From assembly GCA_038143065.1 (NCBI GenBank), contig JAYQLI010000031.1:1-17445 (forward strand): DNA of 17,445 bases, read 5' to 3'. Below, in pieces: positions 1,359 through 17,445 of the stretch (within the stretch, counting starts at the first letter, position 1; the number at the start of each line of letters is the position of its first letter). Below the pieces are notes generated by a model, which was given only the letters and a program-made list of their open reading frames with translations, did not search any database and was not told where the DNA came from. Both the position numbers and the translations under genes were made by a program. This DNA comes from Rhodospirillales bacterium (GTDB taxonomy: Bacteria > Pseudomonadota > Alphaproteobacteria > Bin95).

Positions 1359-1575
1359 CCAAATCCTGCGCAGGCACTGTAACGCTTTTGGACCGAAATA
1401 TCTCGCCTATCTAATATCTAGAATCACACGCACTGGCCTTTGGGAAAGCTATCCAAGTTATCAAAGCTTTGTTGAAATTTTATGGCGTCATAAGCTTTAT
1501 AAAACCTACAATAAAATTACTAACCTGATCACAATAGAATTATCTTAAAAATCAAGTAGTTTTGCTTTAAACAAA

Positions 1576-1615
1576 CGTTCATCAAACTTTTACAAAACTG
1601 TCATTTCAATTTTAC
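1576..1615 (+). promoter_or_regulatory. Tandem Pho boxes (PhoB sites) upstream of pstS
   Basis: Four heptamers at exact 11-bp spacing: CGTTCAT (1576), CTTTTAC (1587), CTGTCAT (1598, consensus) and ATTTTAC (1609), with A/T-rich 4-nt spacers, ~80 bp upstream of pstS. Confidence 0.8.
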
Positions 1616-1697
1616 AAACCTTTATTAGCCAGCGGGTATTCGAGCAATCGGCTCGCGTCTGTTTAAAAGTCTATAACAAGGAATGATTTGACCCCTT

Positions 1698-2704
1698 TTG
1701 AAAATAGCAGTCTCAACATTAACTGCAGTTTCATTATCAGCGAGTTTTGCTTTTGCTCGCGATAACGTACATGCGGCAGGTTCATCAACGGTGCTACCTT
1801 ACGCCGCAATCGTCGCTGAAGCTTTTGGAGAAAATTTTGATTCTCCTACACCGCTGATCGAGTCTGGTGGTTCTGGAGCGGGTCGTAAAAAAATGTGCGA
1901 AGGGGTTGGCGCCAATACAACAGATATTGCGAACTCATCCAGCCGGATAAAGCAGAGTGACATAGATAATGCACATCAGGTGTGACCGATATTATGGAAG
2001 TGCGTATTGGGTACGATGGCATAGTATTCGCAAGCCGTTTGGAGACCAAAGGTTTTGAAAACCTAACACCGATGCACATTTATTTGGCGGCAAGTGACAA
2101 GTCTAATGCATCTAATTGGCAAGCCATAGATCCTGCTATGCCAGACCGTGAAATCATGTTGTTTATCCCAGGAACAAAGCATGGAACTCGTGAAGTATTT
2201 GAGAAGAAAGTAATGTTGGCAGGCTGTAAGAAGGCCGGTTCTTATGATTTGTTCTTCAAACAGAATGGCGGAGATAAAAAGAAGGCCGAGAAAGAGTGCT
2301 TCAAAGTTCGCACCGACGGTCGTTCTGTAGATATTGACGGCGACTATACCGAGACTTTGGCACGTTTGGCATCAAATCCAAACGGCATTGGTGTTTTCGG
2401 TTTAAGCTTTCTATTGAATAATACTGACACGATATATGCAGCAAAGATAAATGGAGTTGAAGCTTCAACGGAGACCATTGCAAGTGGTGTCTATCCAGTG
2501 TCTCGCCCTCTGTATTTTTACGTCAAAATGCAACATTTGGGAGTGATCCCAGGATTGCAGGAATATGTTGATTTCTTCGTTAGCGATGAAATCGCAGGTC
2601 CAGACGGCCCACTGTCTGAATACGGCTTGGTTTCCGATCCTAAATTGGCGGCTACTCAAGCCATGGTTGCAGACGGTGGAACTAAAATGGGTCCGTTGAA
2701 TTAA
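1698..2704 (+). CDS. pstS: Phosphate ABC transporter substrate-binding protein PstS (one frameshift near 1980)
   Basis: Signal peptide (…ASFAFA-RDNV). PstS motifs: AGSSTVLPYA, ESGGSGAG, DIANSSSRI, EVRIGYDGIVFA, KHGTREVFE, YPVSRPLYFYVK. ORFs 1698-1985 + 1982-2704. Start codon approximate. Confidence 0.92.
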
Positions 2705-2725
2705 TCGAAACAAGATTACTGAAGT

Positions 2726-2762
2726 GAGCGCGCTGTACAGAGTGCGCTCTTTTCGTTTGTTC
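2726..2762 (+). terminator. Intrinsic terminator after pstS
   Basis: Stem GAGCGCGCT / AGTGCGCTC (one G-U pair) with a 6-nt loop, followed by TTTTCGTTTGTTT, about 20 nt after the pstS stop. Confidence 0.8.
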
Positions 2763-2852
2763 TAAACTGAATATTTCTTTCTAGGTCCAATTCGGGACCC
2801 AAAAGCCGGTATTATAGCTAATGAAGCTCAACGTTGATGAAAAGTTAAGCCG

Positions 2853-3840
<988 letters not shown>

Positions 3841-3844
<4 letters not shown>

Positions 3845-5094
3845 GAGACACTCCGGCGCGGCCCAAGGGTCTGTCTGCCTATATCGCAACGGTGGCCTAT
3901 TGGGCTTTCATGCTGACCGATGGTGCTTTGCGGATGCTGGTGCTGCTGACTTTCACGCTTGGGTTTTCGCCGGTGCAACTGGCATACTTATTCGTGCTTT
4001 ACGAAATCGCAGGCATGGTCACTAACATTTGTGCAGGATGGATCGCTGCAAGGTTCGGGCTGACATCGACACTTTTTGCAGGTCTTGGCTTGCAGGTTTT
4101 GGCGTTGTTGGCCATGGCGCAACTTGATCCTACATGGGTGGTCGGCGCGTCGGTTGTCTACGTGATGCTGGTCCAAAGGCGCGAGCGGTATGGCAAAGGA
4201 CCTTGCCAAGATGTCATCCAAGTCTGCCGTCAAACTGCTTGCGCCGTCGGGTGACGGAGGCCTGTTCCGCTGGGTCGCCATCCTTACCGGTTCAAAAAAC
4301 ATGGTGAAGGGGTTGGGCTTTCTTCTCGGGGCTTCACTGCTGGCCACGCTAGGCTTTGTCTGGTCGATGCTTGGGATGGCCGCTATTCTGGTTGTAATTT
4401 TGCTCGTTATCCTGATTGCCATGCCCGCCGGTCTGCCTAAGGGCCGCAAGGGCGTCAAGTTTTCTGAGGTATTTTCAAATTCGACTAACGTGAATTGGCT
4501 CAGTGCCGCTCGGGTGTTCCTGTTCGGCGCGCGCGACGTCTGGTTTGTTGTTGGCATCCCGATCTATTTTTATGCGGTCCTTTCGGACGGTACAACCGCG
4601 GGAAATCGCACAGCCTTCTTTCTGATCGGCACGTTCATGGCATTTTGGGTGATCCTCTATGGCTTGATACAGGCCAACGCCCCGCCATTTTGCGTGCAAG
4701 GACGCGGCCCACAGATGAGCTGATAAAAGCCGCACGCGATTGGGCGTGGAGCCTCGCCGCAATTCCGGCCATTCTAACAGGCATTGCGATCATCGCGGGC
4801 GAGCCGCAGCTTTGGTTGACGATCAGCCTCCTGGCAGGGCTTCTGATCTTCGGCATTGTTTTCGCGGTGAACTCATCACTTCACTCCTACCTCATTTTTG
4901 CTTTTCACCAAGGCAGAGCGGGTTACGATGGATGTAGGCTTCTATTACATGGCCAATGCGGCGGGCCGTCTGGCAGGAACGTTATTATCCGGCCTTACCT
5001 ATCAGATTGGTGGGTCCATTGATGCTGCGGCGTAGCGGCGTTCATGGTTGCGCTTTCGGCAATGATGGTTGGGTTTCTGACGCCAGAGCGTTAG
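3841..5094 (+). CDS. arsJ: Organoarsenical efflux MFS transporter ArsJ (frameshifted in read)
   Basis: ArsJ signature segments: [102 protein letters not shown]. Located directly downstream of gap. Confidence 0.93.
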
Positions 5095-5190
5095 TATCCA
5101 TCATCATTGTGGCTATCGGTCCAAGATAGATAACCAGCAAACAGTTTTTCGGGAAAGCTGGCATTAATGCATCGCGCAGCATTCAGCTTT

Positions 5191-5248
5191 TGGGCTCAAA
5201 AGCAGCACTTCGCTGCATGAGTCATCTAACGACTGCTGCGCGGACAAA
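5191..5248 (+). repeat. Intergenic palindromic repeat, copy 2 (direct repeat of 162-217)
   Basis: TGGGCTCAAAAGCAGCACTTCGCTGCATGAGTCATCTAACGACTGCTGCGCGGACAAA. Same orientation as copy 1, between the convergent ends of arsJ and the SBP56 operon. Confidence 0.93.
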
Positions 5249-5337
5249 CCGGGCTTGTGCAAACGCAGCATTTTCTGGCTTTCGCAGCGGTGAATTTACG
5301 GCGATTCAATAGACATTGCCAAAGCGTTCATTGGGCA

Positions 5338-6019
5338 TCATTGATGACCTAAAAATGCAGAATAAACGCCAAATGCCCCGACAGTAATTAGGCTGAGCGC
5401 CCAAAGTAAATCAAGATTGAACCAACTTTTGAAATACAAACCAAACCAAGTGTAGACAAGATCGCAATCGCAGCACCTGCAAAAAGTCATCGCAAAGGTG
5501 TGGGTTGCGGCCACTAAAAAGGCTGTCGTTATATTGTTGCTCATGAGCACTTGTGCAGCGGCATGACCTGTTTCTGACACACTTTCGCCCAGCACTAAAA
5601 GCCGCAAATACCAAGATAAATAGGCACCAGCATTAGTCCCGCACCATGGGCAGTGGCGGCCAGAAACGACCAGAGCCCTAGCTTGGCAGGATGGATGCGG
5701 GCTAGAATTTTCAGGTGTCGCCGATTGATCAAAAGATAGATCCCCATCGCAATCACTAGCGCGCCTGCACCCATCCGAATTTCACGCTCGTTATTGACTA
5801 AGAAATACATCATTGAAAACGGCAGCAAGATGACAATCATCGCCAGAAAATGACCAGTCGCAAGCATTGCACTGGCTTTGATCATGGCGCTTTTCTTGCG
5901 TTCGAAAATAGAGCCGCTGGGAGCAGCCAGAGGCCATCCCCATACCAGGGTTTACGCCATGGTATATACCCGAAAAAATGACGGCCCGCCAAAGGGGCCG
6001 TCGCAGTCATGGTTTCCAT
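5338..6019 (-). CDS. Conserved His-containing integral membrane protein encoded directly after SBP56 (frameshifted in read)
   Basis: ATG at 6019 lies 3 nt after the SBP56 stop. Joined frames give …SGIYHGVN-GMGWPLA…GHFLAMIVILLPF…FLAATAHGAGLMLVPIYLGIC…GHAAA…THTFAM…SWFNLDLLWALSLITVG, about 6 hydrophobic segments. ORFs 5595-5885 and 5338-5607. Confidence 0.8.
5971..6002 (-). terminator. Terminator-like hairpin just after SBP56, inside the 5' end of the membrane-protein gene
   Basis: Perfect 8-bp stem GACGGCCC (5980-5987) / GGGCCGTC (5995-6002) with a 7-nt loop, followed on the minus strand by ATTTTTT. Confidence 0.5.
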
Positions 6020-6022
6020 ATT

Positions 6023-7432
6023 TTATACAGAGGGGTAACAGAAACTATCGGTGGAACAATCGCCGCCTTCCAGACGAATTTGGTGGGCCCGGGTGTTCTC
6101 TGGGAAGTCAATGTAGAAGTCAGGATCAAGGGCAAAACTGCCATCTTCTCCAACATTCGCCATCACCATTTGCCCGCCTTCCTGATGCGGATAGAACTGG
6201 TTGTCCCATGAAGAATAAAGCGAATTTGTCCAATACACTCTTTTCCGTCGCGGCTGATCTCGACCATTTGCGGTCCGTAGATAACCTCCTTGCCGTTAGG
6301 GTGCTTATGTTCGGTGGCGATACCGCCAAGTTGCACCTTACCGTTGAGCACGGGGTTCATTGGATCAGATACATCATATTGATGCATCTCGCCCAAGCCC
6401 CAACAGGCGACATAAAGGTATTTATCGTCAAGGCTCAGGTCGATATCAGTGACCAAGGGTGGCACGGCTCCGAAGCCTTTAAGCAAATCAGGAAGGTTTT
6501 CTGGATCTTCCGGGCGTGGATCGATCGTGATCGTCTTCTTGGATTGCCACACACCATCATCACCACGCCACCAGGTAAAAATCGCGCCTTGTAAGTTTGT
6601 TGTATCAACCACGACACCGCAGAACCCATAAGATTTGGTCGGATCATGGGCAGGGCGGATCTCTAACGCCATCTGGTAGTTTTCACCGAAATCCATCGTT
6701 TGGATGTTTTTGCGTGCGCGCAGATCCCAGAAGTGGATCGAGATGGCCGTATTTGTTTGACAGTAAATCTTCTGGTACAACGCCATTTTCATATTGGGGC
6801 GGCAGACCTCATTCAGATACTGACCATATAGTCTTGTGGCAGGTTCCACCAGAAATCGTAATGTTTGTCTTGTGCACCGCGATCCATTTCGTAGCGACCG
6901 ATAATTTCAAATGTTTCACAATCCATGATGAAAATACCGGGAGGGGCCGTCTGTGCCATCAGCTCCGCCTCCACCAAGAGTTGATACATAAATCCCTTCA
7001 GGCCCACAATGAATTGTATGGGGACGCGAATACCCTGTCTTTTCGAACAGTTCTTCCGGTTCAATAATTTTTATGAATATGAGCCTTTAGTGGATCTTTG
7101 ACATCAAAGATAAAAATACGCGACGAGCGAATGCCTGGTACGATCAGATAGCGGCGTTCTAAAAATGCATGGCCCGATAAGGGCGACAGAGATGATGAAC
7201 ACGCGTTCCAGCCAAAGTGGTGAAATTCGTCCCCAGTGGTTTCAGTCATCACCTTATGAACAATCTCGCCATAGGTTTTCGACCCTTTGCGCAGGTCAAT
7301 AACGGCTAGTCCATCGTGTTGATCAGCGTCTTTGCCCAGCATTACCGTAAATGCAAAATTTTCAGGTGGTGCTTGCATCGCTAGTTTTGCGGATGCATGA
7401 AATGTTGGATCCGGCTTCATCGGTTTATTCAT
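6023..7432 (-). CDS. Selenium-binding protein SBP56/SELENBP1 family, methanethiol oxidase-like, no signal peptide (frameshifted in read)
   Basis: Fragments 7061-7432, 6813-7064, 6163-6849 and 6023-6238 join to ~465 aa. SELENBP1-like motifs: GDEFHHFGWNACSS, SSRIFIFDV, YSRPHTIHCG, HYDFWW, LEIRPAH, TDIDLSLDDKYLYVACW, GPQMVEISRDGK, GGDCSTD. RBS GGAGG upstream. Confidence 0.93.
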
Positions 7433-7497
7433 CGATCTTCCTCCCTAAGTTATTCCCCGCTCATTGGGGTTTGATACATCATTTCCGCGGTTCCTCA

Positions 7498-8256
7498 TTA
7501 GACCTCGGCCACGTTGCATAGTTGAATGGCACCGCCGATCTTTGTTGCAAGCTGTGTCAGCTGACGGCCGATATTATGTCTGTAATCTGTGCCGAACCTG
7601 CGTACGGGTCCGACTGCGCCGACGCTAAAGGTGGCACCGATATTCCCGATTGTTATTGGGGCGGCAACGCTTGAGATGCCAATGTCAATCTCTTGATCGC
7701 AATCGGCAAAACCTTGCTTTCGGATGATATCGAACTCTGCAAGCAGGTCTTCTCGCGTCGCCTTTGTGTGGTCTGTATAGGCTTGAAGACTTCCTTGCAA
7801 AATTTTGTCTTGAAAGTTTTGTTCTGTGAAGGCTGCGATTGCCTTTGAACAAGAACAGGCATGCATCGGGCGTTCACCAAGCCCCTGGATGGATGAAGGC
7901 ACGGGCGGGATCGTCCGGTGTTTCGACATGAATAATTTCCACTTTGCCATCTCGGAAGCGTGCCAGAAACACAGTTTCATTGAATTTGGTAGCGGCCACT
8001 TTGAGAAGGGCGCCACAAACTTTGCGGCGCACATCCACTCGGATTTTCCCAATGAACAATGCGGATCAGCCGTTCACCAATCACATAGCGCCGTCTTGTT
8101 TGGTTGCCTTCGATCGACCTTTGTTGCTGTGTTTGCATCAAGCGATCGCAGGTTGGCGGCAGCCCGCACTTGCTATCTGCGCTTCGGTTGCGCTGATCGG
8201 ACGACCGACGACGGCGACATTTCAAAAAACAAATGAATAAGACGTTCTAGATGCAC
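7498..8256 (-). CDS. IclR family transcriptional regulator (frameshifted in read)
   Basis: N-terminal HTH (…GLPPTCDRLMQT…) and IclR effector domain (RPMHACSCSKAIAAF, LQAYTDHT, IRKQGFADCDQEIDIGISSVAAPI, SVGAVGPVRRF). GTG start at 8256 is inferred. Confidence 0.88.
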
Positions 8257-8279
8257 CTTCAAAGGTACCTATTGAAATA

Positions 8280-8304
8280 TGAGACACTTTCTCAGATGAT
8301 GAGA
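8280..8304. promoter_or_regulatory. Candidate IclR operator in the divergent intergenic region
   Basis: TGAGA-CACTT-TCTCA-GATGA-TGAGA: three alternating half-sites with 5-nt spacers in the ~90-bp gap between the IclR gene and frmA. Confidence 0.55.
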
Positions 8305-8347
8305 GCCAGATCATGGAAAAAATCAAGCAATTTTGCTAAGGAGAAAA

Positions 8348-9455
<1,108 letters not shown>

Positions 9456-9457
9456 AA

Positions 9458-10329
9458 ATGCGGCAGTCCTCTCCCGAGGTGCATACGTTCTTTGATGAAG
9501 CCACGAACGCGGCTTGCCATATCGTAAAAGACCCAGCTTCAAACGCTGTGGCGATTATCGATTCCATCTTGATTTTGACGCCGCAGCTGGCAGTATCGAA
9601 ACGACCCATGCCGATAAGCTGATCGATGAAATCACGCGAAATGACTGGCAGGTCGCTTGGATACTCGAGACCCATGTGCACGCCGATCGCCTGTCTGTTG
9701 CACCCTACCTGGCCGAAAGCTGGGTGGCAAAAATTGCGATAGGAGCCAATATAACCGCCGTTCAAAAAGTTTTGGCCAAGACAATGCAGGTACCGCACCG
9801 AATTTGAGATGGACGGCAGCCAATTCGACAGATTGTTCGCAAATGGGGATATTGACATCGGTAACCTTAATGTCTCAGTGATGCACACGTCGCTGGGCAT
9901 ACGCCTGCCTGTATAACCTACGTCATCGGCGATGCTGCCTTTATCGGTGACACGTTGACTATGCCCGATTTTGGCTGCCGCTCGTGCAGTTTCCGGGCGG
10001 GTCTGCAACCAATCTTTATGCTTCTATCCAACGCATATTAAAGTTGCCTGAAGAGACGCGCTTGTTCTTGTGCCACGACTACAAAACCAAAACGCGTGAG
10101 ACGTTCTGCTGGCAAACAACAGTAGCAGAACAAAAAGGCAAAAAACGTTCATGTCGGTGGTGGCAAATCCGAAAAAGAATTCGTTGACTTTCGGACCAAG
10201 CGGGATGCGCAATTGGCAATGCCGAAACTTATCATTCCATCAATTCAAGTGAACATGAATGCAGGCCACATGCCTGCCGCTGATATGGACGGAGACGTCT
10301 ACCTGAAAGTGCCAATTAACAAACTGTAA
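9458..10329 (+). CDS. pdo: MBL-fold persulfide dioxygenase (PDO/Blh, ETHE1-like; frameshifted in read)
   Basis: Motifs: FFDEATN, IIDSILDFD, WILETHVHAD, GHTPAC, AAFIGDTL-MPDFG-AR--FPGG, TRLFLCHDY, RDAQLAMPKLIIPSIQVNM, YLKVPINKL*. Starts 2 nt after the frmA stop. Confidence 0.88.
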
Positions 10330-10364
10330 AGCTCGTTAGGGCAAGGGTTGAGGCCCCTAATATA

Positions 10365-11578
10365 ATGGCAGATCATCAAATACTTATCGTAGGTGGCGGA
10401 GCCGCGGGTATCGCAACGGCAGCCAGCCTGCATAAACGGGACGCGTCTCTGGATATAGCTATTATCGAGCGCTCAACGACCCATTACTACCAGCCAGGCT
10501 GGACCATGGTGGGTGCGGGCGTTTTCAAAAGAAGAAACGGCACGATCCACGGCCAGTGTCATGCCTTCTTATGTGACACAAATAAGAGGGACCGTTGCAT
10601 CGTTTCAACCAGATGAGAATAGCGTCAGGCTTGAAGATGGAAAGGTGCTTACTTACGGCTCTCTCGTAGTGGCGGCGGGGCTTAAGCTAGATTGGGCTGC
10701 GATTGAGGGGCTTGAGGAAGCGCTTGGTCGAAACGGTGTGACCTCGAACTACCGATATGATCTTGCACCCTACACATGGGAACTGGTTCAAAAAATGCGC
10801 GGGGAAAAAGCTATTTTCACCCAACCGCCTATGCCGATCAAATGCGCAGGCGCGCCGCAAAAAGCAAATGTACTTGTCATGCTCAACCTGGATGCAGGTG
10901 GGTAAAATCAAAGATATCGATGTGTCATTCTCGCAATGCAGGGCCGGTCCTCTTCGGCTGCGCGATTATGTGCCTCCGCTAATGGAATATGTTGACCGCT
11001 ACGGTATAAATCTCGACTTTGGGGTATAATCTGGTGAAGGTCGACGGCCCCAATCAGATAGCAACCTTCAAGGTGGCCAAAGAAGGCGAAGACCCGCGGC
11101 TGGTAGAGCGCAAATTTGATATGCTGCATGTCTGTCCACCCCAATGCGCGCCAGACTTTATCAAAGACAGCCCCCTTGCAAACGAAGCTGGCTGGATGGC
11201 TGTTGACCAATCGACGATGCAAAGCACTATCGCCCCAAATATCTTTGGCCTTGGGGATGTGACCTCAACCCCAAATGCCAAAACAGCAGCCGCCGCGCGT
11301 AAACAAGCCCCAATTGTGGCTGACAATCTGATTGCGCAGATGAAGGAAGCTGCGATGCCGCAAGCCTATGATGGGTATGGATCGTGCCCGTTAACCGTCG
11401 AACACGGCAAAATTATTTTGGCAGAGTTCGGTTATGGTGGAAAACTCATGCCCAGCTTTCCGTGGGACAGCACAAAGCCAAGGCGCGCCGCATGGTTCCT
11501 AAAAAGTCAGTTCTGCCCTGGATCTATTGGAATGCCATGTTGAAAGGCAAAGAATGGCTGGCAAAAACGACCTCTTAG
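10365..11578 (+). CDS. sqr: Sulfide:quinone oxidoreductase, type II-like flavoprotein (frameshifted in read)
   Basis: Motifs: IVGGGAAG, HYYQPGWTMVGAG, NGVTSNY, redox cysteines in IKCAGAPQK and YDGYGSCPL, FGLGDVTSTPNAKTAAAARKQAP, LAEFGYGG, YWNAMLKGKEW. Confidence 0.9.
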
Positions 11579-11753
11579 ATTAGCGCTTTAAGGGTTGTCA
11601 TGTTCGAATTCGTCCGAAAAACGCTATGGACGTTTAAAAGTATTATGCGAGCCAAATGAACGATGGGCTCTAACGCGGTAGTTTGACATGACAACACGCG
11701 AATACAAAATTTTAGGTGCTGCGAGCGCGCAGCACGTGGGCGAATTCGCAGTA

Positions 11754-11810
11754 TGGGCTCTCGGCTGCCATTCGCTGCGTGATCACATCTAACGGCTACT
11801 ACGCAAGGAC
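11754..11810 (+). repeat. Diverged copy 3 of the boundary repeat
   Basis: TGGGCTC-TCG-GCTGCCA-TTCGCTGC-GTGATCA-CATCTAACG-GCTACTACGCAAGGAC shares TGGGCTC, TTCGCTGC, CATCTAACG and GGAC in order with copies 1 and 2. Further fragments: ATGGGCTCTAA at 11663 and AAAAGCAGCCGTTCG at 11921. Confidence 0.8.
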
Positions 11811-12054
11811 CTAGCCGACCTTGCGTACTATTGAGATCGACGGCCGGTTTCGGTGCATCGCGACCCCGCCGATGAATTCGGTTCGAGATTGATCCGGTGT
11901 ATGCATCGCGTCAAACTAGCAAAAGCAGCCGTTCGAGCAAATTTTAGCGAAATTCACCTTCAGATGATTGAGTTGCAGGACAAAGTTGCGGTTTGCGAAG
12001 CCTAAACTAGCAGCTGCTTTGCTCGTGTAGGCCATCGCCAGAAGCCATCCTTCA

Positions 12055-12432
12055 TCAAAGCGTCCAGCATTGGACAGTCTGCGGTGCCGTCATCGCAGTT
12101 CTTGGAGAGCTCAAGAGCGCTTCTCTGAGGCGCATAAGGTTCTCAATCTTCGCGTTTATCTCACCCAAATGGTTCTCGGCCATGGTTCTCACCTCACCAC
12201 AGGATCGGTCATACTGCGGAGTGAGGGATAAAAAGGTCTGTATGTTCGAGATCGGAAAACCCAGATCGCGACACCGGCGCACGAACCTGAGTTTGGCGAT
12301 TTCGTCGGACGAGTATAACCGACGCCCACCAGCGGAGCGTCCGGGCTTTGGGACAATCCCCTCTCGTTCATAGTAGCGGATCGTTTCGATGTTCACGCCG
12401 CTTTGTTCCGACGCTTTGCCGATGGTGAACAT
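12055..12432 (-). CDS. merR: MerR family metal-responsive regulator
   Basis: Motifs: MFTIGKASEQSGVNIETIRYYEREGI, GRRLY, LRFVRRCRDLGF, DRSCGEV. The C-terminal CDDGTADCP lies in an adjacent frame, so the 3' end is approximate. Divergent from merT. Confidence 0.88.
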   Translation of the reverse strand: MFTIGKASEQSGVNIETIRYYEREGIVPKPGRSAGGRRLYSSDEIAKLRFVRRCRDLGFPISNIQTFLSLTPQYDRSCGEVRTMAENHLGEINAKIENLMRLREALLSSPRTAMTAPQTVQCWTL

Positions 12433-12437
12433 TTTGC

Positions 12438-12468
12438 TTGCTCCTGTAGTCACTACAGGAAGTAGAAA
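12438..12468 (+). promoter_or_regulatory. MerR-type promoter/operator for merT-merF-GDCCVxC
   Basis: -35 TTGCTC (12438), 19-bp spacer, -10 TAGAAA (12463). Perfect dyad TCCTGTAGT-C-ACTACAGGA at 12442-12460. Confidence 0.88.
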
Positions 12469-12474
12469 AGCAAA

Positions 12475-12861
12475 ATGGATTTGAATGCAAATCAACAACC
12501 GGTCGCGAACTCTGGCGTTGCTTCCAAGCTTGTGATGCCCTTCGCAGCACTTCTGGCGCTGTTGTCGGCGTCGTGCTGTGTTTTGCCTATCGGCCTTTCG
12601 ATACTGGGCCTAGGTGGTTCATGGCTCGCCATGCTCGGGCCATTCGTCGCTTACCGGGACTTCATTCTTGTCGGCGTCGCGATTGCACTCGTTTGGGCAT
12701 GGTATCGGGTGCTTCGGCGCAGGCCATGTGCAACGCGCAGGCAGTCCACAATCGTCTGGACTACAGTCGCGTCCATCGCCTTTCTGGTCGCGCTATCTTC
12801 GCCCATGTGGGAGGCGTCTGCACAGCGTTTTATGTGGGATTTGCGGAGATCGACACAATGA
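12475..12861 (+). CDS. merT: MerT-family mercuric ion transport protein
   Basis: Intact 128-aa ORF with LSASCCVLPIGLSILGLGGSWL…PFVAYR, three TM segments and a loop Cys. Confidence 0.85.
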   Translation: MDLNANQQPVANSGVASKLVMPFAALLALLSASCCVLPIGLSILGLGGSWLAMLGPFVAYRDFILVGVAIALVWAWYRVLRRRPCATRRQSTIVWTTVASIAFLVALSSPMWEASAQRFMWDLRRSTQ

Positions 12862-13060
12862 AGAACAAACTATTGGCCCTAGAGTGGGTGGCACGATCTT
12901 GGCCGCGCTCTGTTGCTTCACACCGTTACTGCCGGTCGTACTGACTGCGCTTGGTCTGACGGGCTTGCTTGGTGTCGTCTACAGCGATGCGATCTTGCCG
13001 ATATTGGCCGGATTTCTAATTCTGATAGGGTACGCTATGGCGACAGAAGAAACAAAAGCC
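12858..13060 (+). CDS. merF: MerF-family mercury transport protein (frameshifted in read; 3' end uncertain)
   Basis: ATGA overlap with merT. Joined frames read MKNKLLAL-VGGTILAALCCFTPLLPVVLTALGLTGLLG…DAILPILAGFLILIGYA-WRQKKQK. Confidence 0.8.
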
Positions 13061-13262
13061 GTGCTGCAATCTACTCTCACATGTCCAAATTGTGGACACG
13101 CTGAGACCAGACTATGCCGACAGATGCTTGCCAGTGGTTCTATGAATGCAAATCATGTCAGACCGTCTTGAAACCGCTTGAGGGGGAGATTGCTGCGTCT
13201 ATTGTTCTTACGCAACTGTTCCATGCCCACCGATTCAAAAAGGTAAGTCCTGCTGCCCCTAG
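13037..13262 (+). CDS. GDCCVxC-domain small Cys-rich protein (frameshifted in read)
   Basis: Joined frames read MATEETKAVLQSTLTCPNCGHAET-TMPTDACQWFYECKSCQTVLKPLEGDCCVYCSYATVPCPPIQKGKSCCP*. Confidence 0.85.
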
Positions 13263-13328
13263 GGGCGATTCAGGCCTCGCGCAGCTGAAGGGTCAACGAA
13301 CCTCCGAAAAGCTTCTTAGCGAGGCGGC

Positions 13329-13875
13329 TCAGATAAAACGACGGGTTGACGCCATATACTCGTCAAAATCAGACCCGTATTGCTTCTTGAGCCACGGTTC
13401 TTCCGCGAATGGCGCAGCTACCAAAACCAAGATCGAAGCCGTTCCAACAATGAGCGTTGTTGGTGTTGCAGTAAGGATCAACCAACCTCCTACAATCGCG
13501 ATATCGGCCATGTACTGAGGATTGCGAGTAGCGATACATGCCAGCGGTCCTCAGCGTGCCTTTCGCGCCGCCCGTTTGTGGCACCCGAAATGCGAGACTT
13601 CAAACCAGACTACGATATTGCCGAACACAATGAGCGGTATCCCAACCCCGAAACGCAGCCAGGTGGGAAACGCCAGATCACCCCAGCCCAAGACGCCAAG
13701 CATGATCAGAATGCCAAACAACGAAAACGTTGGCACCCAGACCAGAATTGGTGTGATCGACGTAGCGCTTGGGTGGCCAGATACGACGCGCGGGGAAAGC
13801 GATTGACCAAAGGATCGAAGCAAGTGTCACCGCAGCAATTCCCAGACCTAAGTAAATCAAGATGACTTCTATCAT
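13329..13875 (-). CDS. Isoprenylcysteine carboxyl methyltransferase / PEMT-like membrane protein (frameshifted in read)
   Basis: MIEVILIYLGLG…RRIWPP…LRTAGMYRYS-NPQYMADIAIVGGW…PFAEEPWLKKQYGSDFDEYMASTRRFI. The G-Y-Y-S-R-N-P-Q-Y and EE-L---YG--Y----RF patterns are family hallmarks. Confidence 0.8.
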
Positions 13876-14787
13876 TATCTGTCTCTCATGCCCATAGAGC
13901 TGCGCCCATCGTGTGCATTCCCCGATCCTCCACTCCGAGAGTGGAGTGCTGGATGCCGAACTTTTCGGCGAGGGCGCGCTTTCACTGCCGCTTTGATCCT
14001 TTCGCCCGACGCGCCACCGAGCCGCGTCACGACATGGCAATCCACGCGTCGTTCTCTTCCATCTGCCACAGATGAACGTGAGCTGGACATCATGGACCCC
14101 GTCGACCTCCCTGATTGCAGCAGCAACGGCATCATTGTCGATGTCGGGTGGGCTACCTAGCATCAGGATGCCGGATGGGTTTGCCGATTTCAGTGAAGGC
14201 GAGATAAAGTAGGTAGAGCGCGATGCCGATCGTGATCGCCGGATCGACCCACCACATGTTATAGAGCAGGATGAGCGAGCCGCCGATAATTACGGCAACC
14301 AGAAACTGCCGTCTGACGGGGCTATCAGGAAGAGCGCCGGATGTTCACGCTGCCCTTTGCATGGAATAGTCGTTCAGCGCTATTGGCGTGTCTACGGCAG
14401 CGCCACCGATCCCAGGATCACCACGGTCCAACCGGCCACTTCGGTCAGTTCGATCATGCGCATTCCGCCCTCGTAGATGAGATAGAACCCAACGAGGATG
14501 AGGGTGGTAGTTGATCAAGGCAGCCACAACTTCGATCCGGCCATAGCCGAATTTTCATGCGCCCGTCCGCAGGGCGTCTTGCGATTTTTCCGAGCTGCAA
14601 AAGCGATCACCAAGGATGCCATGTCGGAGAAATTGTGCAGAGCATCCGCAATAAGCGCGAGGCTGCCCGACAAGATCCCGCCGACGATCTGCGCGACCGT
14701 CAGAAGTGCGTTGGCCCAGATCGCGATTGAGACACGGCGGTCCCCTGACGCGGGATCAATATGCGCGTGACCGTTATCATGAGGCAT
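13875..14787 (-). CDS. Cation diffusion facilitator (CzcD/ZitB-like) transporter (heavily frameshifted in read)
   Basis: MPHDNGHAH…AQIVGGILSGSLALIADALHNFSD…AALIN…WVDPAITIGIALY…LGSPPDID…IREVDGVHDV. The central region 14160-14500 is very noisy. Confidence 0.85.
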
Positions 14788-15550
14788 GACGCGATTCCTC
14801 GTGTTTATGATTGGGCAACGCCAAGCCAGGTATTTGCGGCACATTGCCTGATCTGATCCGGCGCACGCGGGCGTTCATCAATGGCGGACTATATGGCGAT
14901 ACAATATGCCTTTTACGAAGCTAAACGACTGCTGATGAGCGGCGTAGAATTCGTCGGGCGCGTCGAAAATACCAAAGTCCTGGGCAATACCGGTTTCTTG
15001 GATGTAGGTATCGCCACCCGTCCACTCTCTACAGGGAGCCTGCAGGCAGTCGGTGCCTGCCCCGTAACCGCAGAGGCTGGGTGAATCGGTAAATGTGGAT
15101 TGGAGCGCCGATAGAAACTCTGCATCCAGAATAAACCCTTCGAGGTTCGCCCAACCCGTCTCGGTCTGCACCTCAACCCATGAGTGGATTAGATCTCATT
15201 GGGGGGAGGGGGTAGACGATTTCTGGCACAACACCCCGCTGCATTTCTTTTGTGGATCGTGAACCCGTGAAGGCGGCACCGCACACCGACCGCGCGCAAC
15301 AAAGCCATAAGTAACGTGCCCTTGGTATTGCATTGACCAAAACCGTCAGCGAGTACGCCTGCCGCCGGGATATCGTCTGCGCGGTTACCTAAAGGCAACT
15401 TCGTTGCGGACGAAATCGTAGACCGCGCCGATCCGGTCATGCTGAAAAGGGCTTTCCACCCTCGGTCCTCGATCAGTTGTGCAATCGACGGGTGGTTGAA
15501 GTTCAGGATTGGGTTGCTGCTAACAACGGATCATCAGCGCTCATTTTCAT
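14777..15550 (-). CDS. Transglutaminase-like domain protein (frameshifted in read)
   Basis: RBS GAGGAG. MKMSADDPLL…NFNHPSIAQL…VYDFVRNE…ADDIPAAGVLADGFGQCNTKGTLLMALLRAVGVRCRLHGF…IHSWVEV…WANLEGFILD. The stop overlaps the CDF start. Confidence 0.8.
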
Positions 15551-15583
15551 CTCCTCGAATCGCCTTTGAGATAGATGTAATTG

Positions 15584-15607
15584 CTACACCAGTGACTTTA
15601 GGTTCAA
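15584..15607 (-). promoter_or_regulatory. Degenerate MerR-type promoter/operator for the transglutaminase-CDF operon
   Basis: Minus strand reads TTGAACCTAAAGT-C-ACTGGTGT. It has the same -35 as the 16183 promoter and the same AGT-C-ACT core as the 12442 operator. The -10 is unclear. Confidence 0.5.
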
Positions 15608-15648
15608 GGGTTCTTTTCGTTTTGGTAGCTTGAGAGCCGTGGAAACGG

Positions 15649-16078
15649 TTAAGCCCCAATTTCATCGTGGTCGGTCAGACACTCTGAGTGATCGCGCAAG
15701 ACCTCGAGAACCTTGCAGTCCGCCGTATTGCCTCCGCTGCATTCGTGGATCATGCGCTTCAACTCTGTGCGTAGCGCTTTCAGCCGATCCATCCTTAGTT
15801 CTACCTGTTTGAGTTGCCGCCGGGCGATGGAATCCGCCTCATGGCAGGAGCGGTCGGGATTATCACTGAGATCCGAGAAGCTCGCGGATCGCTTCAAAGG
15901 GGAAACCCCAACTGGCGTGCGTGCCGGATAAAAGGACAAGGGTCAACTTCCCGCATCCCGTAGCGCCGCTGCCGCCTTCGGTGCGACCTGGTTCGAGCAT
16001 CAGGCCGATCTGTTCGTAATACCGGACAGTCTGAACTTTTGTTCCGGTCTTCTTTCCCAAACTTCCAATTGTCAGCAT
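15649..16078 (-). CDS. MerR family regulator, Cd/Pb/Zn-responsive type (frameshifted in read)
   Basis: MLTIGSLGKKTGTKVQTVRYYEQIGLM…DLSDNPDRSCHEADSIAR…HECSGGNTADCKVLEVLRDHSECLTDH. Three conserved Cys plus a His/Cys tail. RBS GGAGG. Confidence 0.9.
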
Positions 16079-16182
16079 GTGACCTCCATATCTATAGCGT
16101 TGGTAGCTATAGCTATTGGCATCCGCAAGCCAGCACGGTAATCACAGATCCGTGACACGCTGCCGCAATGCCGAAATACAAC

Positions 16183-16213
16183 TTGAACCTCTAGCAGCTA
16201 GAACATTTAGAAC
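16183..16213 (+). promoter_or_regulatory. MerR-type promoter/operator for sco-dsbB-dsbA
   Basis: -35 TTGAAC (16183), 19-bp spacer, -10 TAGAAC (16208). Dyad TCTAGC-A-GCTAGA at 16190-16202. Confidence 0.82.
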
Positions 16214-16250
16214 GCTTTAAAAATGGGCGGAATCGGGCGCAATACAACCA

Positions 16251-16849
16251 ATGAAATTTTCTACGTTACAAAAAATGCTTTGGGGACTTACCGCGATCGT
16301 GGCTGTTTGGGTTCCATTTTTTTGCAGGTTTCTATCAGAGAGGAACAGCGCGCTGATGCGCCCGCGTTCCAAGCCGACTTCGAACTGACCGATCACCGAG
16401 GCATAGTTCAGACGGACGAAGATTTCGCGGGGCGCTGGTTGCTCGTCTTCTTCGGCTTTGCGAATTGCCCCGATGTGTGCCCCACGACTATGGCCGAGGT
16501 TGCCGCCGTCATGGATGCGCTCGGCTCTGACGCGGCCCAAGTCCAGCCTCTCTTTATTTCAATTGATCCCGAACGTGATACGCCCGAACAACTCGCAGAG
16601 TTCGTACCGGCGTTTGGCGCAAACATCATTGGGCTGACCGGTACGGCCAATCAGATCAAGCGAACATCTGAAACCTTCCGTGTGTACTTTGAGAAAATCG
16701 AGGAAGCGGCATCGCCCGACGGATACACGATGGGGCATTCGTCTCAGCTGTTCCTCTTTGATCCGCAAGGCGGATATGTGGGGGCGTGGGTCTACGGCAC
16801 ACCGGCAGAGGAAATCCTTGCCGATCTGAAGGCGCGGATGTCGATATGA
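16251..16849 (+). CDS. SCO1/SenC family copper chaperone
   Basis: Motifs: FELTDHRG, FFGFANCPDVCP (CxxxC), FISIDPERDTPE, GLTG, YTMGHSS. The likely true start is ATG 16251 (MKFSTLQKMLWGLTAIVAVW, membrane anchor) with one frameshift into ORF 16223-16849. Confidence 0.92.
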
Positions 16850-16857
16850 GACGGGTG

Positions 16858-17273
16858 ATGTCAAAAAGAGACGGCTTTGACCGCCGCGTGGATCGTCGCT
16901 TTGGGGAGTTCGCTGGCCGTGCTCTTTATAGGTGAGGTTCTGGGGCAGGCTCCGTGCAATCTGTGCTGGTTTCAGCGTGCGTTTATGTTCCCTCTGGCCG
17001 TCGTGTTGGGCCTCGGTCTCTGGTGGGATGATCACCGGGTCGGTCGCTACGGTGTTGCCGCTCGCCCTTGGTGGGGCCGCCATCGCACTCTGGCATCTGG
17101 GCCTTTATATCGGGCTCCTCCCGGAGCGTATCCAACCCTGCACTGCGACCGGTCCGTCCTGCACCGATGACAATCAGGTCTTCCTCAGCGTCCCAATCCC
17201 ACTTTTGTCGTTGGTCGCCTTTGGGCTGATCGCGATCCTGTCCATTTTCTCCCTGAAGGAGCAGCGCACATGA
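16858..17273 (+). CDS. dsbB: Disulfide bond formation protein B (DsbB/BdbC-like; one frameshift)
   Basis: PCNLCWFQRAFMFPL, a second Cys pair PCTATGPSC, and four TM segments. ORFs 16877-17170 + 16932-17273. Confidence 0.88.
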
Positions 17274-17445
17274 AAAACAAATCAGTCGTTCTATCGGTCC
17301 TAATCGTTGGCCTTGCGATCTTTGCCGCCGCCGTTTGGTACCAAACCCGCCCTGCGCCGGTTGCTCAGGTCGAACCTGTCCAGCCCGAAATTGCAGAGGC
17401 ACTGATCCGGTCCTACTCTCCTATCCTTGGCCCCGAAGAGGCCCC
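17270..17445 (+). CDS. DsbA/BdbD-like thioredoxin-fold protein, 5' part (runs off window)
   Basis: ATGA overlap with dsbB. MKNKSVVLSVLIVGLAIFAAAVWYQ…LIRSYSPILGPEEAP: an N-terminal anchor plus the SP-LG---AP motif that normally precedes the DsbA domain. The CxxC is not within the window. Confidence 0.7.
   Translation, partial: MKNKSVVLSVLIVGLAIFAAAVWYQTRPAPVAQVEPVQPEIAEALIRSYSPILGPEEA

Follow-up and report, generated by a model that had tools for sequence, protein, structure and literature searches.

The locus and its genes

The DNA considered here, hereafter the window, is an entire 17,445-base contig (JAYQLI010000031.1, our C31) of a Rhodospirillales bacterium assembly (GCA_038143065.1) that comprises 4.63 Mb in 52 contigs, and its central part holds six genes that probably form a cassette for the oxidation of methanethiol and the removal of its products. 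On the minus strand, a gene for an IclR-type regulator is followed by one for a protein of the SBP56 family and by one for a membrane protein, the partner in what follows; divergent from these three, on the plus strand, lie frmA, pdo and sqr. This layout, proposed in a first-pass annotation made from the sequence, is borne out by Pfam and tblastn searches, and so is the tight packing of the plus-strand arm, with 2 nt between the end of frmA at 9455 and the start of pdo at 9458, and 35 nt between the end of pdo at 10329 and the start of sqr at 10365. Intact orthologues from Ruegeria atlantica CECT 4292 (locus L040), used as tblastn queries, align along almost the full length of all six genes, with each gene spread over several frames (Table 1); none of the six frames is intact in the window.

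The two main pieces of iclR are 62-74% identical to the R. atlantica IclR, and the main pieces of the fragmented frmA are 83-94% identical to an orthologue that itself scores 598.4 bits on TIGR02818 (cut-off 543.95). The R. atlantica orthologue of pdo gives 376, 352 and 340 bits to PDB 9g8t, 4efz and 4ysk, respectively, and 397 bits to the dioxygenase part of Blh, so that, by its relation to the solved bacterial enzymes, pdo appears to encode a type II persulfide dioxygenase. Similarly, the orthologue of sqr scores 334.7 bits (E 8e-99) against human SQOR, compared to 51 bits against 3hyv and 75 bits against FCSD, and by this relation to the solved SQOR the gene would encode a type II sulfide:quinone oxidoreductase (SQR) rather than a type I SQR or FCSD. 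Scanning the window for Rfam families and tRNAs gave no matches.

Table 1. Positions of the cassette genes, the putative operator and the flanking repeats in the window
Feature	Position	Strand	Evidence and state
membrane partner gene	5338..6022	-	tblastn covers residues 11-223 of 223; ~223 aa in relatives; broken by frame changes
SBP56	6023..7432	-	tblastn covers 3-465 of 465; ~467 aa in at least 4 frame pieces, with one in-frame TGA at a conserved Trp
iclR	7498..8256	-	GTG start (placed by alignment); IclR_C 54.3 bits; tblastn 34-252 of 252; broken by frame changes
palindrome TCTCATCATCTGAGA, putative IclR operator	8290..8304		lies in the 91 nt between iclR and frmA; matched exactly in the window
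frmA, S-(hydroxymethyl)glutathione dehydrogenase (class III ADH)	8348..9455	+	ADH_N and ADH_zinc_N pieces; tblastn 1-370 of 370; broken by frame changes
pdo, persulfide dioxygenase, MBL fold (type II-like)	9458..10329	+	Lactamase_B piece; tblastn 1-290 of 290; broken by frame changes
sqr, sulfide:quinone oxidoreductase, mitochondrial SQOR-like (type II)	10365..11578	+	Rossmann piece; tblastn 5-405 of 406; broken by frame changes
intergenic repeat, left	5191..5248		56/58 identical to 162-217, E 8e-17; match to contig C13 ends at 5238
intergenic repeat, right, diverged	11755..11800		85% identical to C13:3749-3791; public-run contigs end or change context at 11754-11785

A leaderless enzyme of the RlMTO branch

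The SBP56 gene matches PF05694 in four pieces (223.5, 109.9, 76.4 and 35.5 bits; gathering threshold 34 bits) that span model positions 2-453, and the GWNACS, HTIHC and GGDCS motifs are all readable in these pieces. The best protein matches are 466-467 aa long and come mostly from Rhodobacterales; the read-through is 91% identical to one intact 467-aa protein (P0001). As the annotation had noted, a signal peptide appears to be lacking. Only 65 nt separate the iclR stop codon at 7498 from the SBP56 ATG at 7432, the N-terminus (MNKPMKPDPTF...) aligns from residue 1 with 467-aa homologues and contains no hydrophobic stretch, and no 12-residue stretch among the first 40 residues exceeds a hydropathy of 0.68, compared to maxima of 1.76-2.68 for three MtoX-type proteins. 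Among solved structures, the nearest is that of the cytoplasmic archaeal SBP56 of Sulfolobus tokodaii (PDB 2ECE; 558 bits, aligned residues 4-465).

In the accessible part of their report, Cao et al. (2024; PMC10936201) divide 57 methanethiol oxidases (MTOs) of Rhodobacteraceae into two clusters, of which cluster 2 consists of 8 members that include the Ruegeria pomeroyi MtoX and is marked by the motif TCQSPYM; RdMTO and RlMTO were purified from E. coli and consumed methanethiol, RlMTO doing so without MauG or SCO, and the RlMTO mutants C76S, C140S and C456S were described. The window SBP56 seems to belong to cluster 1, on the branch of RlMTO (from Ruegeria lacuscaerulensis), because the motifs and the cysteine numbering of RlMTO are found in Ruegeria homologues that are 70-74% identical to the largest piece of the window gene: in the 466-aa Ruegeria members of the window clade the cysteines are Cys76, Cys140 and Cys456, exactly as in RlMTO. 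In a maximum-likelihood tree of SBP56 proteins (35 rows, RlMTO itself not among them), the window read-through falls inside an 18-row clade with 100/100 support, alongside the Ruegeria proteins with this numbering. The likeness to RlMTO thus extends to the clade, the missing leader, the three motifs and the activity without MauG or SCO.

The protein lies outside canonical MtoX, as the annotation had anticipated. The R. pomeroyi MtoX group lies across a branch of 2.97 changes per site (100/100), and on the MtoX equivalog model NF052453 (cut-off 650) the R. atlantica orthologue reaches 127.4 bits and the window pieces 35 and 31.5 bits. The TCQSPYM motif was absent from the window-clade members tested and present in R. 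pomeroyi MtoX, which carries Cys28 in agreement with PMC10936201, and in proteins of genomes G025 and G033. Canonical MtoX, as represented by Hyphomicrobium sp. VS and R. pomeroyi SPOA0269 in the accessible text of Eyice et al. (2017; PMC5739008), shares with the window enzyme the Pfam family, the reaction class, an upstream IclR gene (39-46% identity) and frmA in the cluster, and is distinguished by a signal peptide, the TCQSPYM cysteine and downstream sco1/senC and mauG, none of which the window clade has. Another leaderless branch, represented by proteins of genomes G008 and G053, fits the cysteine spacing of RdMTO (82, 143, 448). RdMTO and human SELENBP1, to judge from what is available of Schlemminger et al. 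(2026; PMC13603461), are likewise leaderless, copper-dependent SBP56 thiol oxidases that share the HH, HxxH and C-terminal GGDC motifs with the window protein; they stand on a separate branch, with a GPGY-type N-terminus and a Cys spacing of 61/305.

How common are these types? Among 151 genomes of Roseobacteraceae, the family of R. atlantica, which are kin so that the counts are not independent, the window clade is found in 33 and the RdMTO-like type in 20, whereas MtoX above the model cut-off occurs in 2; the prediction that MtoX-targeted surveys would miss this clade is therefore correct. Two other expectations fared less well. The clade cannot be called largely uncharacterised, because its Ruegeria members share their exact cysteine numbering with RlMTO, a purified and methanethiol-consuming enzyme tested in 2024 (PMC10936201, accessible part); the same role had been proposed for non-MtoX homologues in R. 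lacuscaerulensis (Wirth et al., 2020; PMC7157515, likewise in the portion available). The clade is leaderless and not linked to sco or mauG, but the second, MauG-independent methanethiol sink that the annotation proposed is already in print. The annotation was right on the nature of the clade and late, because the MTO activity had already been published; by analogy, that of the window clade would rest on the published work on RlMTO (PMC10936201).

A search of 8 same-genus genomes did not detect the window clade. The single same-genus SBP56 (G008) was considered as a member of the clade and proved to be of the RdMTO-like type, in a different context. This gene (L017, G008:C74, 9000-11178; GPGY-type) is followed by genes for a 121-aa ferredoxin-like and a 154-aa CoA-binding-like protein, judged by eye.

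A probable dedicated membrane partner

A scan of 185,579 species genomes for SBP56 confirmed 585 relatives, and the counts of loci given here and below refer to the best 80 (81-93% identity), in which the window was compared with all open reading frames (ORFs), followed by tblastn with R. atlantica and R. pomeroyi proteins. In 79 of these 80 loci, a gene for a membrane protein of 219-231 aa begins 0-25 nt after the SBP56 gene, and at the 80th the contig ends. Within the Roseobacteraceae set, the partner is present in the same 33 genomes as the window SBP56 clade, with all 35 copies adjacent to the enzyme gene, whereas the 20 genomes that carry the RdMTO-like type never have it beside that gene. 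Plasmids of Rhizobium leguminosarum and Phaeobacter piscinae also encode the SBP56-partner pair, the partner being listed there as a hypothetical protein. Furthermore, in G064:C110 and G084:C192, a divergent SBP56 gene (~630 bits) is still directly upstream of a divergent partner gene (85-110 bits), and the pairing therefore seems to be older than the core clade. A literature search, from which subscription journals were mostly outside coverage, turned up no description of the partner or of the gene layout, and the accessible part of PMC10936201, in which no search was aimed at the word 'membrane', does not mention a membrane partner, the localisation or the gene neighbourhood of RlMTO.

The partner family is large, with at least 8000 candidates at E 0.001. 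Among the 120 family matches listed, nearly all named ones are hypothetical proteins and none has a Pfam domain; no Pfam or NCBIfam family was matched by the single sequence or by 30 members, save for a faint TauE match (E 1.6) in one of the 30. The 30 aligned members share 75 invariant positions, including His22, His57, His102, His125, His148 and His169 (R. atlantica numbering), several Met residues and a YHG-NPGMGW loop, and the AlphaFold model consists of six long helices (pLDDT 73.7, pTM 0.71). No family model or solved fold matched that would place the partner among DsbD_2/NicO-like (LysE-type) proteins.

In a complex model computed with the alignments of both proteins, the enzyme and the partner score 0.61, the median of three runs (0.00, 0.62 and 0.61), and the best of three controls scores 0.00; 58 of 80 solved complexes attain the mark used, compared to 2 of 110 mismatched pairs. 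The agreement between runs is at least 2% of contacts, and the partner has a pLDDT of at least 64. The model supports binding between the two proteins. On the enzyme side, the predicted interface is formed by the N-terminus, by the loops that follow GWNAC and HTIHC and by the C-terminal FCYPSV beside GGDC, and on the partner side by residues 26-41, 101-112 and 189-202, including the invariant NPGMGW loop. The partner residues fall in and beside three loops that would be cytoplasmic, because these loops hold 7 Lys/Arg residues against 0 on the opposite side, and we read the arrangement as that of an enzyme in the cytoplasm that binds to a membrane protein dedicated to it.

The most likely role of the partner is the delivery of copper. 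A different view is that it does not supply copper at all, being instead an exporter of sulfite or polysulfide, or a redox partner that passes electrons from the enzyme to the membrane. The faint TauE match in one of the 30 members would suit the exporter, and the redox variant could draw on the four invariant His residues in transmembrane helices, which could bind haem, and on the finding, in the accessible text of PMC10936201, that no H2O2 is seen with these enzymes. Nevertheless, the pairing persists in 79 of 80 loci irrespective of pdo being nearby, the invariant His and Met residues lie mid-helix, as would fit an ion path, and no relative of the exporter or redox kind has been found by sequence or fold, so that we consider a partner without a role in copper supply to be unlikely. 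A bolder proposal, which can be held only tentatively, is that MTOs of the RlMTO type are two-component enzymes, in which members of an undescribed His-rich membrane family sit on the active-site face and either import and hand over copper or complete catalysis. Were this the case, assays of the soluble protein would understate or distort activity and products, and the linkage of sqr and pdo would also argue for sulfide as a real product in vivo.

Recurrence of the product-removal genes and regulation

The annotation regarded the linkage of frmA, pdo and sqr to the SBP56 gene as strong context evidence for the function of the latter. So does this context recur? Of the 80 loci, 78 have upstream flanks that can be evaluated over 900 nt or more, 70 over 2100 nt or more and 64 over 4300 nt or more. 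IclR is a neighbour in 33 of the 80 and frmA, at 78% identity or above, in 12, whereas 3 loci have sqr and 2 have pdo, and the full layout of the window is found in one locus only, that of Ruegeria atlantica; linkage this rare does not amount to strong evidence. There are variants, too: the gene divergent from iclR in L028 is sqr on its own, and L087 has pdo and sqr on the downstream side of the partner gene. One Ruegeria atlantica genome (G061) has two SBP56-partner pairs and an RdMTO-like SBP56 gene on contigs C47, C49 and C4, with frmA-pdo-sqr beside the C47 pair only. A DNA search with the module among 40 relatives matched frmA alone (64-69% identity), and the flanks of the window show no conservation across the 8 genomes of the same genus that were searched.

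That no sco or mauG gene is adjacent holds for the immediate neighbourhood and for the relatives, in which SCO of the R. pomeroyi type is found in 0 of 80 loci, SCO1 of the window type in 1, and a weak MauG-like peroxidase (29-31% identity, 4.5-7 kb distant) in 2. It does not hold for the window at large: a SCO1/SenC gene (169.8 bits) is present at 16223-16849, 4.6 kb to the right of sqr and 9 kb from SBP56. The window pieces scanned, which do not cover every window frame, contain no mauG-like gene.

For canonical mtoX, the presence of product-removal genes beside the MTO gene has been described before. In R. pomeroyi, the operon runs IclR, mtoX, SCO, cytochrome c peroxidase, frmA, and the mto clusters of Methylophaga thiooxydans, according to the accessible text of Kroeber and Schaefer (2019; PMC6548844), combine an MTO gene with pdo, sqrB and sulP. 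The latter resemble the window in the clustering with pdo and sqrB and differ from it in encoding a periplasmic MtoX together with sco1/mauG, tlpA and sulP, with neither frmA nor a six-helix His-rich partner in what that source reports. Nor can the cassette be regarded as self-contained, as the annotation had it, given that no S-formylglutathione hydrolase is detected in the whole assembly (best score 20 bits; cut-off 281.7).

The IclR of the window type is 39-46% identical to that of the R. pomeroyi mtoX operon. A TCTCA-N5-TGAGA palindrome is kept in all 11 aligned iclR-frmA intergenic regions, and of the 15 strict matches to it across the 80 loci, 14 are found directly upstream of iclR, compared to 2 matches in shuffled DNA; it is also present upstream of iclR where frmA is absent. 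Because the palindrome sits in the divergent iclR-frmA promoter region, the two arms plausibly share an operator and, through it, would be co-regulated.

The proposed pathway and its alternatives

Taken together, these observations lead us to favour, with good though not decisive confidence, a reading in which the 6.4-kb segment is an accessory cassette that couples a leaderless cytoplasmic methanethiol oxidase of the RlMTO type, its membrane partner and an IclR regulator to an opposing frmA-pdo-sqr arm, the partner being most likely the copper supplier. The observed part of this reading comprises the gene identities, the clade placement, the missing leader, the counts of synteny and the complex model, which stands clear of its controls. 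The enzyme gene is directly followed by that for the dedicated membrane partner, both behind iclR, with frmA, pdo and sqr across the common 91-nt control region. The enzyme would convert methanethiol to formaldehyde and reduced sulfur (H2S and/or sulfane sulfur); FrmA would take the formaldehyde as its glutathione adduct, and SQR with PDO would oxidise sulfide via glutathione persulfide to sulfite. Meanwhile, the membrane protein may dock from the cytoplasmic side on the active-site face of the enzyme and most likely supply copper, the role played by SCO1/SenC for periplasmic MtoX.

Could the enzyme instead be a general detoxifier of thiols or chalcogens, in a cassette that serves sulfide, thiol or metalloid stress within a resistance island? 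The window flanks, with their GAPDH-like and ArsJ-like pair, MerR, MerT-like piece, cation-efflux gene and SCO1-DsbB, might be taken to say so, pdo-sqr pairs are general sulfide detoxification genes, and RdMTO takes other alkyl thiols (PMC13603461, accessible part). We nevertheless consider this quite improbable, since the same type of IclR and frmA occur in the proven R. pomeroyi mtoX operon, the linkage to frmA (12 of 80) points to a one-carbon product, and the flanks of the 80 relatives vary and do not consist of metal genes.

Several facts weigh against the pathway as proposed. RlMTO is active in vitro without the membrane partner (PMC10936201), and the sulfur product is disputed: in the accessible parts of the two reports, PMC10936201 gives sulfane sulfur and no H2O2, and PMC13603461, in which RdMTO is copper-dependent, makes formaldehyde and accepts other alkyl thiols, gives H2S and H2O2. 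The partner has no detectable transporter relative, the best Foldseek match against PDB having an E of 0.2 and none reaching E 0.001 or below; its nearest neighbours by ESM features, the DsbD_2/NicO clusters at 0.88-0.89, provide a weak lead only. One of the three complex runs scored 0.00, and because our own alignments were used, the calibration of that score holds only roughly. Most members of the clade work without pdo and sqr nearby, these being linked in only 2 and 3 of 80 loci, respectively. In favour of the pathway, contigs from RNA libraries of two studies span both module arms, but such libraries can hold DNA. Finally, this sequence has no intact reading frame, so that any function in this organism is putative.

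Methanethiol is a hub in the marine turnover of dimethylsulfoniopropionate (DMSP), dimethyl sulfide (DMS) and methionine. The prevalence of the leaderless clade over canonical MtoX, 33 to 2 in the 151 Roseobacteraceae genomes, backs the published view that surveys restricted to MtoX count too few methanethiol sinks. The kind of enzyme is already known; what looks new is its constant pairing with an unnamed His-rich membrane protein. If this obligate partner has the role suggested here, it offers a testable answer to the question of how a cytoplasmic copper enzyme obtains its metal, and it may explain the disagreement between groups on the products of the enzyme. Ruegeria atlantica CECT 4292, a cultured strain, has the same six-gene layout intact.

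The broken frames

The longest reading frame anywhere in the window is 247 aa, and frame changes or stops, from 2 up to 6 or more per gene, interrupt each of the six module genes. ORFs of at least 200 aa cover a fraction of 0.17 of contig C31, compared to 0.75 of the 2.86-Mb contig C35; coverage is equally poor in many other small contigs of the assembly, and even on C35, the best contig, rpoB is frameshifted. The window stretch, or part of it, is present in 20 of 24 public runs listed, which come from 11 studies, with 0.65-0.66 of the sampled window words found in DNA runs and 0.44-0.50 in six RNA runs. We aligned contigs from two DNA and two RNA public runs to the window, and in the short-read contigs small indels are about as frequent as substitutions: 47 gaps and 41 substitutions at 5233-8861, 38 and 39 at 8834-11778, and, in an RNA-library contig, 11 and 15 at 5707-7527. 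Because the short-read contigs differ from the window by many indels, the frame breaks look like long-read indel errors, and the frames are presumably intact in the short-read contigs of the public runs.

The alternative is that the six genes are true pseudogenes of an island in decay, for which one could cite the breakage of all six and the single break that is a substitution, the TGA at a conserved Trp of SBP56. This we regard as very improbable: the contig is broken evenly along its whole length, as are many small contigs, near-identical short-read contigs differ from the window largely by indels, the catalytic motifs of SBP56 are all kept, and the 91% identity to relatives is as high as that between intact relatives.

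Genomic setting and origin

As stated in the annotation, the block is bounded by repeats: a ~57-nt element on the left (5191-5248) has a diverged copy to the right of sqr (11755-11800). The repeat carries an internal GCAGC...GCTGC hairpin and is also found at C13:3736-3792 and C23:16987-17014, at segment borders. To the left, window 1457-5238, with genes for a PstS-like protein, a GAPDH-like protein and an ArsJ-like transporter, is 94.6% identical to C13:1-3792 (161 mismatches, mostly transitions, and 30 gap openings), and C13 continues with unrelated genes past the shared repeat; the presence of this block twice in the assembly could reflect two strains or a duplication. To the right lie MerR, a MerT-like piece, cation-efflux, transglutaminase-like, a second MerR, SCO1/SenC and DsbB. 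This right segment (11751-17445; GC 0.551) is compositionally foreign, its tetranucleotide profile correlating with that of C35 at r 0.19 and with Rhodobacterales flanks at r 0.89. The host, with an RpoB at most 78% identical to those of named Rhodospirillales, is therefore an uncultured marine alphaproteobacterium. The repeat borders, the differences in depth between segments and the foreign right segment make the cassette accessory, and it was probably acquired from Rhodobacterales-like donors.

The same data can be read differently, namely, as a chimeric or mis-binned contig whose cassette comes from a Rhodobacterales-like organism and not from the genome of the assembly. The closest proteins are from Rhodobacterales whereas the host RpoB is 76-78% identical to those of named Rhodospirillales, the clade is missing from the 8 same-genus genomes searched, and the right segment has the composition just described. 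In addition, DNA depth differs by segment, at 31-50 for the module and 90-156 for the flanks in run X1, and at 44-132 for the left flank, 12-45 (mostly 12-17) for the module and 0-9 for the right flank in run X3; among 32 short-read contig pieces listed (of 373), none crosses either repeat, the pieces starting or stopping there. On the other side of the scale, all three parts stand on a single long-read contig, the assembly holds in C13 a 94.6% match to the left part, the tetranucleotide profile of the module fits C12 and C13 (r 0.90), and the depths are sums over all organisms in a run. On balance, we consider a chimeric origin unlikely, although it retains more weight than any of the other alternatives discussed above to the cassette as a whole or to copper supply by the partner.

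An apparent empty-site joint (5187-11754) in run X1 rests on ~7 matching letters at a contig end and was not used; stretches of the window that lack coverage in some runs, and the ranking of genes by depth, were likewise left out of the evidence. Contigs C12, C13 and C33 correlate in tetranucleotide profile at r 0.94-0.97 among themselves, compared to 0.81-0.86 with C35; two populations, a difference between replicons or an effect of the error profile may be responsible, and the contamination of the assembly is given as 5.53%. A copper or thiol-redox cluster that the annotation had not listed occupies the right end of the window (15649-17445): beyond a minus-strand MerR gene come, on the plus strand, SCO1/SenC (169.8 bits), a DsbB-like gene split into two frame pieces and a gene with an open end.

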